Shown in pieces: positions 21,512-55,804 of a stretch of DNA of 64,000 nucleotides. The DNA comes from Rhodoferax sp. (lineage in GTDB: Bacteria; Pseudomonadota; Gammaproteobacteria; Burkholderiales; Burkholderiaceae_C). The stretch spans positions 529,039-593,038 of the forward strand of contig NZ_JABBPD010000004.1 of assembly GCF_012927445.1 (NCBI RefSeq). Direction: 5' to 3'. The notes beneath the pieces are model-generated. The model saw nothing but the letters and a program-made list of their open reading frames with translations, ran no database searches and was not told the origin of the DNA. Made by a program: the position numbers and the translations under genes. How positions within the stretch are numbered: the stretch's first letter is position 1; every line of letters starts with the position of its first letter.

Positions 21512-22108
21512 ATGCATCCCAAGTTACTGAACACTCTTGTTTTGATAACTGCTTGCGCACTGTCCACGGGGGCTAGCGCCCATATTGGCACTGAAGTTGG
21601 CACCCATGCCGAGTTCGGGCTTTTGAACGGCCTGCTGCATCCGTTGACCGGCTTGGACCATCTGGCCGCCATGCTGGCCGTGGGCTTCTGGAGCGCGCTA
21701 ACCGCCCGCCGCGCCTGGACGGCACCACTGGCCTTCGCTGCCATGTTGCTGGTCGGCGCCCAGCTCGGCCTGGCCGGGATGGCGCTGCCGGCGGTCGAGC
21801 CGATGATTGCGGCCTCGCTCTTGGTGCTGGGTTTGCTGGTGGCCTTGCGGGCCCGCCTGCCCGCCCTGCTGGCGGCCGCCTTGGTCGGTGTTTTTGCCAT
21901 TTTTCACGGTGTCGCGCATGGCACCGAACTTGTTGGTGCGGCAACCGTCTGGGCGCCGTTGGCGGGCATGTTGATCACCACCGTGGCACTGCATGCAGCC
22001 GGCCTCGGTTTGGGTCTGACCCTGAGAACGCGCAACCGATGGGGGGCGCGCATAGCAGGCACGGTGGTCACCCTCTTCGGCAGCTTTTTGTTGCTGCAAA
22101 TGGTTTAA
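21512..22108 (+). CDS. ureJ: HupE/UreJ-family nickel transporter
   Basis: HPLTGLDHLAAMLAVG, VEPMIAAS and FHGVAHG motifs. Confidence 0.9.
   Translation: MHPKLLNTLVLITACALSTGASAHIGTEVGTHAEFGLLNGLLHPLTGLDHLAAMLAVGFWSALTARRAWTAPLAFAAMLLVGAQLGLAGMALPAVEPMIAASLLVLGLLVALRARLPALLAAALVGVFAIFHGVAHGTELVGAATVWAPLAGMLITTVALHAAGLGLGLTLRTRNRWGARIAGTVVTLFGSFLLLQMV
21530..21580 (+). repeat. Dispersed palindromic repeat, copy 3 (in-frame in UreJ signal peptide)
   Basis: TTGATAACTGCTTGCGCACTGTCCACGGGGGCTAGCGCC, encoding LITACALSTGASA; left arm degenerate. Confidence 0.7.
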
Positions 22109-22120
22109 CGAGGACACACC

Positions 22121-22450
22121 ATGACACCCGGCGAAATCATCACCGACGGCCCCGATCACTTCCTCAACCCGGGACGACCCACCGTCACGCTGGTGGTGCA
22201 AAACACGGCGGACCGGCCGATCCAGGTCGGCTCGCATTACCACTTTGCTGAAACCAATGGCGCGCTCGGCTTTGACCGCGCCGCTGCCCAGGGTATGCGC
22301 CTGAACATTGCTTCGGGCGCGGCGGTGCGCTTCGAGCCGGGGCAGCAACGCACGGTGGAGCTGGTGGACTACGCAGGGGAGCGGCTGGTGTTTGGTTTTC
22401 GTGGATTGACGAACGGTGCGGTTGACGCCAGCATCAAGGGAACTCTGTAA
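22121..22450 (+). CDS. ureB: Urease beta subunit
   Basis: [32 protein letters not shown]. Confidence 0.97.
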
Positions 22451-24168
22451 TGGCAACAATTGGACGACGCGCTTACGCCGAAATTTTTGGCCCCACCGTG
22501 GGCGACCGGGTGCGGTTGGCGGACACTGATCTGCTGATTGAAGTCGAGCAAGACCTCACGCTGGGCGCCGGTGGTTACGGTGAAGAAGTCAAGTTTGGCG
22601 GTGGCAAAACGATCCGTGACGGCATGGCGCAATCGCAGCGCACGCGCGCCGAAGGAGCCGTGGATTGCGTCATGACCAACGCCCTGATCCTGGACCACTG
22701 GGGCATCGTCAAGGCCGACATCGGTCTCAAAGGCGGGCGCATCGTGGCCATCGGCAAAGCGGGCAACCCGGACGTGCAGCCGGGCGTCGACATCATCATC
22801 GGCCCCGGCACCGAGATCATCAGCTGCGAAGGCAACATCGTCACCGCCGGCGGCATCGACTCGCACATTCACTTCATCTGTCCGCAGCAGATCGAGGAGG
22901 CGCTGGCGAGCGGCGTCACCACCATGATGGGCGGTGGCACCGGCCCAGCCACGGGCACGTTTGCCACCACTTGCACGCCCGGACCGTGGAACATTGAGCG
23001 CATGTTGCAGGCGGCCGATGCCTTCCCGATGAACCTGGGTTTTCTGGGCAAGGGCAACGCCAGCCTGCCGGCCGCGCTGCACGAGCAAATCAACGCCGGC
23101 GTCATCGGCCTGAAACTGCACGAAGACTGGGGCACGACACCGGCCGCCATCAGCAACTGCCTGGACGTGGCGGAAGAGACCGACGTGCAGGTGGCGATTC
23201 ACTCCGACACGCTCAACGAGAGCGGCTTTGTCGAGAACACCATCGCTGCCACCAAGGGCCGCACCCTGTGCGCCTTCCACACCGAAGGCGCGGGCGGCGG
23301 TCATGCGCCCGACATTCTGAGGGTGGTGGGCGAAACCAACTTCTTGCCTAGCTCCACCAACCCGACCATGCCGTACACCGTGAACACGCTGGACGAGCAT
23401 GTTGACATGCTGATGGTCTGCCACCATCTGGATCCCAGCATTGCCGAAGACCTGGCCTTTGCCGAGAGCCGCATCCGCAAGGAAACCATTGCCGCCGAAG
23501 ACGTGCTGCACGACCTCGGCGCCATCAGCATGATGAGCAGCGACAGCCAGGCCATGGGCCGCGTCGGCGAAGTGATTCTGCGCACCTGGCAGACCGCGCA
23601 CAAAATGAAGGGGCAGCGCGGCAAGCTCTCCGAAGACAGCGAGCGCAACGACAACTTTCGCGCCAAACGCTACGTCGCCAAGTACACCATCAACCCGGCC
23701 ATTGCCCACGGCATCAGCGACGAAGTGGGCAGCATCGAGGTCGGCAAATGGGCCGATCTGGTGGTGTGGAAGCCGGCCTTCTTCGGCGTCAAACCGGCGC
23801 TGATTCTGAAAGGCGGCTTCATCGCCATGGCGGCGATGGGCGACCCCAACGCCTCGATCCCAACGCCGCAGCCGGTGCATTACCGGCCGATGTTTGGCGC
23901 CTATGGCGGCGCCCTGACGCGCGGCTCGCTGACCTTTGTATCGCAGGCCGGGCTCAATGCCGGCATCCAGGAACGCTTCGGGCTGGCCAAGACCTTGAGC
24001 GCGGTCAAAAACATTCGCGGCGTGCGCAAGCAGCACATGGTGCACAACCACTACCTGCCCAAGATGGAAATTGACGCCCAGACCTACACCGTGCGCGCCG
24101 ATGGCCAATTGCTGACCTGCGAGCCCGCGGTAAGCTTGCCGATGTCGCAACGTTATTTCTTATTCTGA
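22450..24168 (+). CDS. ureC: Urease alpha subunit
   Basis: [42 protein letters not shown] and SSDSQAMGR motifs. Confidence 0.99.
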
Positions 24169-24779
24169 TGCTCCAAATCTCCAAACTCATGCCGCAAGGC
24201 GCCGGCCTCGCCCCGGTGCTGATCAAACGCGCCGCCACCGTCGAACTGGACTGGGACGTGCGCCAGAAAAGCCGTTTTGACGCCACCGATTCACAGGGTC
24301 GCACGCTCGGTATCTTCCTGCCACGTGGCACCGTGGTGCGCGGTGGCGACGTGCTGGTGGCCGAAGACGGCTCGCTGATCCAGGTGATCGCGGCGCCGCA
24401 GCCGGTGCTGGTGATTACCACTTGCAGCGCGCACGGCAGCCCGTTTGACCTGACGCGCGCCGCCTACCACCTGGGCAACCGCCATGTGCCGATCGAACTC
24501 CAACCCGATCACCTGAAAATCGAACCCGACCATGTGCTGGCCGACATGCTGCGCGCCCTGCATTTGACGGTGCGCGAGGCGACCGAGGCGTTCGAGCCCG
24601 AGGGTGGCGCCTATTCCGCCACCGGCCACAGCCACGCCCCCCACGTCCATGGCGCTGCGCACGACCATAGCCCTGCGGCGCCAGCCGCAAAACCCAAGCC
24701 CATCAGCATTCCGATTGCCGCCGCGGCGCCGCACGTCCATGGGCCGGGCTGCAATCACGGGCACGGCCACCACCCCTGA
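24168..24779 (+). CDS. ureE: Urease accessory protein UreE with His-rich tail
   Basis: [33 protein letters not shown]. Confidence 0.95.
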
Positions 24780-54665: not shown

Positions 54666-54696
54666 AATGGCCCACTTCGGTGGGCCATTTTGTTTT
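54666..54696 (+). terminator. Intrinsic terminator after rplY
   Basis: AATGGCCCAC-TTCG-GTGGGCCATT followed by TTGTTTT. Confidence 0.85.
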
Positions 54697-54721
54697 CGGC
54701 TTTTACCCTGATAATTTGTTC

Positions 54722-55336
54722 ATGATTAGACTTTTTGTTGGCCTTGGTAATCCCGGCCCCGAATACGAATCCACCCGCCATAACGCCGGATTCTGGTGGA
54801 TTGATGCGCTTGCGCGTGAACTCAAGACTCCTCTCGTGATGGATAAAAGCTACCACGGGCTGGTGGGCAGAACCACGGTGAACGGGCAAACGGTCTGGCT
54901 GCTCGAACCTCAAACTTTCATGAACCTGTGCGGCAAGTCGGTCGCGGCACTGGCGCGTTTTTTCAAGATTCAGCCCCAGGAAATCCTGGTCGCGCACGAC
55001 GAACTGGACATCATCCCGGGCGAAGCCAAGCTCAAACTCGGCGGCAGCCACGCTGGACACAATGGTTTGCGTGACATTCACGCCCAACTCGGCACGGACG
55101 ACTACTGGCGCTTGCGCTTGGGCGTGGGTCACCCGGGCGTCAAATCCGAGGTCATCAACTGGGTGCTGAAAAAACCTTCGCTGGACCACCGGATTGCCAT
55201 TGATCAGAGCATTGACCGCGCGCTCAAGGCCCTGCCGCACTTTCTGGCGGGCGACATGGATAAAGCCACCATGCTGGTGCACACCAGCAAGCCGCCCAGG
55301 CCCAAGCCACCGCGTCCTGAAAATCCACCGCTGTAA
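54722..55336 (+). CDS. pth: Peptidyl-tRNA hydrolase
   Basis: [34 protein letters not shown]. Confidence 0.97.
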
Positions 55337-55375
55337 CATCCGCCTGATCCAACCCTATCGAACAGAAAGAACGCC

Positions 55376-55804
55376 ATGCAAAGCACCCCCTTGAATGCTA
55401 TATTTTTAATAGCTTCTTGCGCTTTATCGACGGGGGCTACGGCTCAAAATACTTACAAATGCGGGGATGCCTACAGCCAAGTGCCCTGCCCCGGCGCCAG
55501 GGTTATTGACGCCACGGACAGCCGGACACCCGCACAGAAAACACAGGCCGACTTGGTAACAGGGCGCGTGGCCCGCACGGCTGATGCGATGGAGAAGGCG
55601 CGACTGCAACAGGAAAAAATAGACAGCGCGGCCAACGCGTCACCCGTGCCGCCAGCGCACATGGAGAATGCCAGCGCCGCCGGCACAACGCAAGCCAAGA
55701 AGAAAAAAAGGAAAGCGCCTGATTACTTTACGGCGCAGGCGCCTGGCGAGAAAAAGAAAGCCGCTAAAAAGATAACGGCAAAAAAAGACGCGACCAAATC
55801 CTGA
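55376..55804 (+). CDS. Secreted hypothetical protein (DUF4124-like N-terminus, Lys-rich tail)
   Basis: Signal peptide then YKCG..YSQVPC. Confidence 0.7.
   Translation: MQSTPLNAIFLIASCALSTGATAQNTYKCGDAYSQVPCPGARVIDATDSRTPAQKTQADLVTGRVARTADAMEKARLQQEKIDSAANASPVPPAHMENASAAGTTQAKKKKRKAPDYFTAQAPGEKKKAAKKITAKKDATKS
55395..55444 (+). repeat. Dispersed palindromic repeat, copy 6 (in-frame in signal peptide)
   Basis: ATGCTATATTTTTAATAGCTTCTTGCGCTTTATCGACGGGGGCTACGGCT, encoding AIFLIASCALSTGATA. Confidence 0.85.

Follow-up and report, generated by a model that had tools for sequence, protein, structure and literature searches.

A dispersed repeat family of Rhodoferax and its probable rewriting of existing signal peptides in exported proteins

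Introduction

Whether a short dispersed DNA repeat can provide the export signals of bacterial proteins is the question raised by a 64,000-nucleotide (nt) stretch of a Rhodoferax sp. genome (contig NZ_JABBPD010000004.1, positions 529,039 to 593,038 of the forward strand), hereafter called the window and numbered from its first letter. Copies of a repeat of approximately 65 nt lie at the starts of three genes in this window, which encode UreJ, LolB and the product of an open reading frame (ORF) beginning at position 55376. A first-pass annotation had taken the repeat to be a recurrent source of the h- and c-regions of signal peptides and of lipoboxes, in effect a portable export signal. The analysis covered homology at the nucleotide level, the frames and positions of the copies, their enrichment and shifts in composition, and the patterns among orthologues, and the results indicate that old in-frame copies of the repeat probably rewrote existing signal peptides in exported proteins, with no new export created.

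Repeats that sit inside genes are known from other bacteria. The Rickettsia palindromic elements (RPE; Ogata et al. 2000) are described, as cited in PMC2229807, as lying in-frame inside many genes, including housekeeping genes, as well as between genes. Delihas (2007) described the enterobacterial repeats RU-1/ERIC, RU-2/YPAL and RU-3, with ORFs that are fused into genes (PMC2759123; reviewed in PMC2229807), and reported that in-frame hydrophobic repeat peptides at gene starts give rise to predicted signal peptides or transmembrane segments, for example in Yersinia YPO1552 (PMC2759123, PMC2229807).

Results

The 10-mer core of the repeat, ACGGGGGCTA, has exactly five occurrences in the window and 193 in the genome searched (3.94 Mb in 10 contigs, 59% G+C), nearly always within repeat context. 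Alignment of 191 copies yielded a consensus of approximately 65 nt, consisting of GCTAT, an AT-rich part, ATAGCT.CTTGCGCA, six variable nt, ACGGGGGCTAGAGGC and.ATTT, which is stop-free in one frame per strand. A hidden Markov model (HMM) built from the aligned copies and run with nhmmer detected 459 non-overlapping copies genome-wide, of which 247 were intergenic and approximately 212 lay in genes; the total for the window was six. The element is dispersed and its distribution is Comamonadaceae-wide.

Three of the six window copies were confirmed to share one reading frame near N-termini, with the coordinates and peptides that the first-pass annotation had given. The copy at 21521..21589 (+; nhmmer 47.3 bits) lies in the UreJ gene (21512-22108; Pfam HupE_UreJ match 5.7e-56), whose product starts with MHPKLLNTLVLITACALSTGASA followed by His, the element-encoded part reading LVLITACALSTGASA. 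This N-terminus has the pattern MHPK-LLNTLVLITACAL-STGASA/H, in which LVLITACAL would form the h-region, STGASA the c-region and His the mature N-terminus. The LolB gene (51283-51795; match to Pfam LolB) contains a degenerate copy at 51313..51381 (+; nhmmer 22.3 bits, E 4e-6 on the locus set), with the core variant ACAAGGGCTA at 51358-51367, and carries the peptide FATIFIAGCAAPTRA. Its lipobox F-I-A-G-C lies inside the repeat, as had been claimed, the Cys codon being the element's TGC, and the similarity to the repeat runs beyond the lipobox into mature residues, with use of the rare codons ATA and AGG. The third copy, at 55385..55453 (+; nhmmer 54.3 bits), lies in ORF 55376-55804, which carries AIFLIASCALSTGATA with the pattern ..LNAIFLIASCAL-STGATA/Q and offers two candidate sites, a lipobox-like L-I-A-S-C and A-T-A/Q; its product is a small conserved secreted-type protein with the motif YKCG..YSQ.PCP and a weak match to Pfam DUF4124. 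The pattern of a Sec type I signal (positive n-region, uncharged hydrophobic h-region of approximately 8-15 residues, small residues at -3/-1) was matched by UreJ and ORF 55376, while LolB matched the lipobox pattern [LVI][ASTVI][GAS]C that closes the h-region. Judged from these sequence patterns, the repeat-derived N-termini would be translated, exported and cleaved.

Homology between these signal regions and the repeat was assessed with a position weight matrix (PWM) derived from 113 intergenic copies only, the peptide being held fixed while synonymous codons were resampled from genome usage (20,000 resamples). For each of the 12 signal copies in the forward frame, the observed score was above that of every one of the 20,000 resamples (z =5.9-8.5); this group included UreJ (z =7.4), LolB (z =6.0) and ORF 55376 (z =7.5). 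The five signal copies in the reverse frame gave z =6.4-7.7. Among 234 ordinary signal peptides used as controls, the best in-frame score did not exceed -30 bits, compared to +25 to +71 bits for the repeat type, and z averaged 0.4 with a maximum of 4.1. In addition, G+C at third codon positions (GC3) was 0.29-0.50 in the repeat-derived signal segments compared to 0.755 genome-wide. The resampling tests and the control signal peptides together exclude convergence, and the coding signal regions are true repeat copies, homologous at the nucleotide level.

In-frame copies were then counted genome-wide using gene calls from our own simple, crude gene finder (3,493 genes, 88% coding). Two of the six possible frames were occupied by 167 of 197 in-gene copies, and the frame was open through the element in 184 copies, 92 in the forward frame (peptide A-I-x-L-I-A-[TAS]-C-A-x-x-T-G-A-[RS]-[GA]) and 92 in the reverse frame (peptide P-L-A-P-V-x-x-A-Q-x-A-I-x-x-I-A). 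N-terminal in-frame copies numbered 35 of these 184, compared to 9% expected (p =2e-5). In 17 of the 35, comprising 12 forward-frame and 5 reverse-frame copies, the h/c-region or lipobox is formed by the element; as signal peptides take up only 1-2% of codons, the enrichment is 5-10-fold (p ≤7.5e-8). The proteins concerned are HupE/UreJ, LolB, LolA, DsbD, a periplasmic cyclophilin, an SLT_2 transglycosylase, a cupredoxin, M16 and M48 peptidases, an HlyD-type fusion protein, two solute-binding proteins, SCO1, SIMPL, a polysaccharide deacetylase, ORF 55376 and an unassigned 93-amino-acid protein without a Pfam match; all assignable families among them are generally exported in bacteria. Mean hydropathy was 1.59 in signal copies, 0.76 in open intergenic copies and 0.44 in internal copies, with 0.7, 1.8 and 2.2 charged residues per copy, respectively, and this shift in composition is the mark of context-dependent selection after a copy arose. 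A few genes, among them those of a TonB-dependent receptor and a lipoprotein, have a native signal after the element; they may represent intermediates, or else their true starts may be located further downstream.

Orthologues were compared to determine what the signal positions contain when the repeat's nucleotide signature is missing. In LolB from 40 genomes of the genus, neither the length of the lipoprotein signal nor the position of the Cys depended on the signature, the PWM score reaching up to +62 where the signature was present and falling to -50 to -91 where it was absent. A lipobox was found at the LolB position in 29 of the 30 genus orthologues examined, and the remaining one ends in LLCAC, which the pattern missed. 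UreJ orthologues and HupE paralogues likewise have a signal of the same length and position with or without the signature, and the orthologues of ORF 55376 (37 of 41 genus genomes) all have an N-terminal signal whose length and position are independent of it. Since orthologues without the signature have signals of the same length in the same place, the element appears to have replaced signals that already existed.

These comparisons divide the first-pass proposal. That the repeat is a recurrent source of h/c-regions and lipoboxes stands in so far as 17 signals are repeat-derived, and the scan of N-termini across the genome bore out the proposed enrichment. It is not supported, however, that the element was the source of the lipobox as such, which is present at the same place in orthologues without the signature. 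The description of it as a portable export signal is not upheld, as the assignable host families are exported anyway and signature-free orthologues have equivalent signals. Comparison across lineages did agree with the proposal, in that the nucleotide motif is mostly missing from orthologues in genomes that carry few or no copies (PWM -50 to -90).

The signal copies are ancient, at the genus to family level and of at least genus age. In a tree of mature LolB the signature occurs on both sides of the deepest split, in the same register and with the same core variant ACAAGGGCTA, which is most simply read as one old origin followed by decay. This variant, and not the dominant ACGGGGGCTA, is common to orthologues at approximately 50% protein identity (L022, L031, L042, L044, L046-L048). 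A copy in the leucyl-tRNA synthetase LeuRS occupies one orthologous position in at least six genera (Rhodoferax, Acidovorax, Hylemonella, Curvibacter, Comamonas and others; loci L068-L147), the nucleotide signature being kept in the AT-richer genomes, while in GC-rich ones the peptide A[IM]D..AA.ASVAGA..LKDV.F alone is conserved. Loss was seen in genome G014, which has almost no copies and in which the signature is gone at six of seven orthologous coding sites (PWM -40 to -82; loci L026, L191, L200, L227, L233, L237), while sister genomes at similar protein divergence keep it (PWM 28-80). This suggests a family-wide maintenance that can be lost.

Signal peptides account for a minor share of the in-frame copies, and the first-pass annotation missed the larger picture: approximately 90% of in-frame coding copies are not signal peptides, and most lie within cytoplasmic proteins, in two frames. 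A robust set of 131 internal copies was found in 123 genes, many of them housekeeping and with both frames equally used; the hosts include LeuRS (leuS, L001), PepN (pepN, L002), PurL (purL, L003), UvrD (uvrD, L007) and AddA. Measured against solved structures, the UvrD linker is longer by 28 amino acids, PurL by 11 and LeuRS by 5.

Intergenic copies abut the 3' ends of genes and often have the stop codon within the element, and in approximately 28 cases the stop codon of a co-oriented upstream gene lies approximately 10 nt inside it; the forward frame is stop-free in about half of all intergenic copies. Three of them are in the window. The copy at 4422..4490 (+; exact core 4467-4476) sits just beyond the 3' end of a minus-strand gene (3740-4375). 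That at 33306..33374 (-; exact core 33320-33329 on the minus strand) lies between two minus-strand genes, contains the stop codon of the upstream one and has its end adjoining the ATG of the downstream one. As the first-pass annotation had stated for these two (its positions 4432 and 33315), the signal frame is closed, by TAA and TAG, respectively. The sixth copy, at 8694..8762 (+; exact core 8739-8748), was absent from that annotation's finding, and its signal frame is open until a TAA at the 3' end.

The predicted fold of the element is weak and limited to two short hairpins, GCTAT..ATAGC (5-7 bp, AU-rich) and GGCT..AGCC (4-5 bp). No stable stem-loop was found in the six copies folded (z-scores -0.9 to +0.6), so that the term 'palindromic' is only weakly apt, and no terminal inverted repeat was seen in the 191-copy consensus. 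There was no Rfam match to the repeat, either at the gathering threshold over the whole window or at E ≤1 for one copy, and no NCBIfam match to the repeat peptides, whose Pfam matches were weak, sub-threshold and only to the host proteins' own domains. Literature searches found no earlier description of this repeat family. Two pairs of copies with near-identical flanks lie approximately 1 kb apart (G000:C2:842386 and 843371; G000:C5:86704 and 87699) and have the appearance of local tandem duplications in which the repeat was copied together with its surroundings.

Two further features of the window were noted. An Rfam 5_ureB_sRNA match (99 bits; 22613-22898, minus strand) lies antisense in the urease cluster, where an ORF of approximately 570 amino acids spans 22450-24168, and may reflect only the conservation of urease coding sequence. 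A pair of c-di-GMP-I riboswitch aptamers (61 bits each; 27957-28039 on the minus strand and 28320-28402 on the plus strand) point apart, upstream of divergent genes.

Discussion

The rewriting of existing signal peptides by old in-frame copies could have proceeded as follows. Copies in genes persist almost only in the two stop-free frames. The forward-frame peptide, a hydrophobic stretch followed by small residues, would need few changes to become either a lipobox I-A-[AGS]-C or a Sec h-region with a c-region of the AxA type. Few sites in an exported protein would tolerate such a peptide, the signal peptide being one of them, and in the 17 proteins that slot is now taken by the element. Selection would then have raised hydrophobicity and removed charged residues in the signal copies, while cytoplasmic copies drifted the opposite way. 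These events would be at least as old as the genus, with prior signals replaced without change of length. The copies themselves may have arisen either by insertion followed by trimming or by a conversion-like overwrite.

Several observations weigh against this account. Inspection of PurL, PepN and three further hosts, in up to 30 genomes, turned up no empty site, each of the relatives inspected having a segment at the corresponding place. There is little or no net length change in several coding copies (PepN differs from Neisseria PepN by 1 amino acid), and a simple 66-bp insertion does not predict a length change near zero. The signal-peptide and lipobox calls are heuristic, made by sequence pattern, and the crude gene calls make the counts approximate and the starts of some N-terminal copies uncertain. 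Tolerance alone, without benefit, could also be the source of the enrichment in signal peptides.

Of the other explanations, the one with next to no chance of being correct is that signal peptides and lipoboxes merely use similar codons which the HMM picked up. The LolB match is weak (22 bits), and the peptide I-A-G-C-A necessarily shares bases with ATA GCT.CT TGC GCA; against this stand the low GC3 of the segments and, in LolB, the similarity that continues past the lipobox and its rare codons, while the codon resampling and the 234 controls effectively refute a convergent resemblance. It is also very improbable that the elements lie in 5' untranslated regions, with the true starts of the three genes downstream and nothing repeat-derived translated. 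Such an arrangement appears to hold for the few other N-terminal copies in which a native signal follows the element, and our gene finder started ORF 55376 at 55589, downstream of the AT-rich repeat-encoded signal, a mis-start attributed to the depression of coding scores by repeat copies at gene starts. In UreJ, however, the mature His comes directly after the element's A-S-A and all orthologues and paralogues have a signal at this place; the only lipobox Cys of LolB is the element's TGC; and in ORF 55376 the conserved YKCG motif comes immediately after the element, there is no internal start and a signal is found in all orthologues. A reversed direction, in which the repeat family descends from the mobilised start of a signal-peptide-coding gene, would account for a consensus forward frame that is signal-peptide-like even in intergenic copies, but we regard it as highly unlikely, given that the reverse frame is used equally (92 vs 92), that most copies are intergenic or gene-internal, that the element extends past any signal-coding part and that no donor gene is evident.

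A more serious competitor, though still unlikely in our judgement, is a copy-number-dependent process acting genome-wide, by gene conversion or by selection at the DNA or RNA level, that keeps copies near consensus and overwrites coding segments, export being incidental. It finds support in the length-neutral occupancy of PepN and of the LolB, UreJ and ORF 55376 signals, in the joint loss of the signature in G014 while sister genomes retain it, in the retention of the LolB signature, which tracks repeat load, and in the nucleotide signature of the LeuRS copy kept across several genera. Its low rating follows from the small sample, a handful of loci, and from the relatedness of the genomes, which are not independent samples; furthermore, no conversion tracts were demonstrated, PurL, UvrD and LeuRS show net gains in length, and LolB keeps its own core ACAAGGGCTA and not the dominant ACGGGGGCTA, which fits vertical descent better than homogenisation. 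An overwriting drive, in which some process writes the element length-neutrally over coding segments, even those of the essential leuS, pepN, lolA, lolB and dsbD, and in which loss of the process leads to joint decay as in G014, is possible though doubtful; if it were true, signal peptides would be one visible product of a genome-wide overwriting of sequence. A drive resembling that of DNA uptake sequences would account for the even split of orientations, for copies that leave length unchanged and for decay across a whole lineage, but was rejected as sole cause, as approximately 45 conserved positions cannot repeatedly arise by point mutation. The replacement of existing signals by old in-frame copies is retained as the probable explanation.

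REP/REPIN elements are mobilised by RAYT tyrosine transposases. The repeat resembles them in its hundreds of short copies at gene 3' ends and in the presence of one Y1-transposase-like gene in the genome, and differs in that 40% of its copies are intragenic and that it has no strong GC-rich palindrome. The Y1-transposase-like gene (G000:C5:423869-424600, minus strand; 243 amino acids; Pfam Y1_Tnp, approximately 48 bits) is overlapped at its 3' end by one repeat copy, the only adjacent one, and has a homologue in 41 of 41 genus genomes, including those nearly without copies. As it is present whatever the repeat load, a RAYT/Y1 mobiliser is not supported. The repeat known as BRE (Hot et al. 2011) was also considered; it has been reported from Bordetella and from Comamonadaceae such as Rhodoferax and Polaromonas, where part of the copies lie in coding sequences, and is approximately 90 bp long, 69% G+C and often in tandem (PMC3110155). 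The present element, at approximately 65 nt, is AT-rich and dispersed, and since size, G+C and tandem habit differ, identity with BRE was set aside; the two appear to be different elements, a distinction drawn from the description of BRE and not from its sequence.

The closest likeness is to RPE, which are also dispersed short repeats with stop-free frames that lie between and inside genes without breaking their hosts. Unlike RPE, the element is about half the size, has only a weak short hairpin, occurs in a free-living bacterium whose LeuRS groups it with Comamonadaceae, near Rhodoferax, and has far more coding copies (approximately 184), some of which barely alter protein length. Repeat-derived signal peptides were already proposed by Delihas, and the concept is thus not new; those cases were few, mostly in hypothetical proteins, and were proposed as new genes, whereas here 17 well-known exported proteins including LolA, LolB and DsbD are concerned, an existing signal is replaced and homology is shown by codon resampling. 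The family is accordingly of an RPE-like kind that is already known, and is notable for its scale and for the involvement of LolA, LolB and DsbD.

Conclusions

In practical terms, repeat copies of this kind can mislead start-codon calling. Repeat-rich and repeat-poor sister genomes constitute a natural experiment on the maintenance of dispersed repeats. The repeat-derived parts comprise 17 signal peptides or lipoboxes, including those of the essential lipoprotein-sorting pair LolA/LolB, and approximately 130 internal segments in proteins such as LeuRS, PepN and PurL. From a direct statistical test on the sequences, it would appear that selfish or repetitive DNA can supply protein parts in a free-living bacterium.

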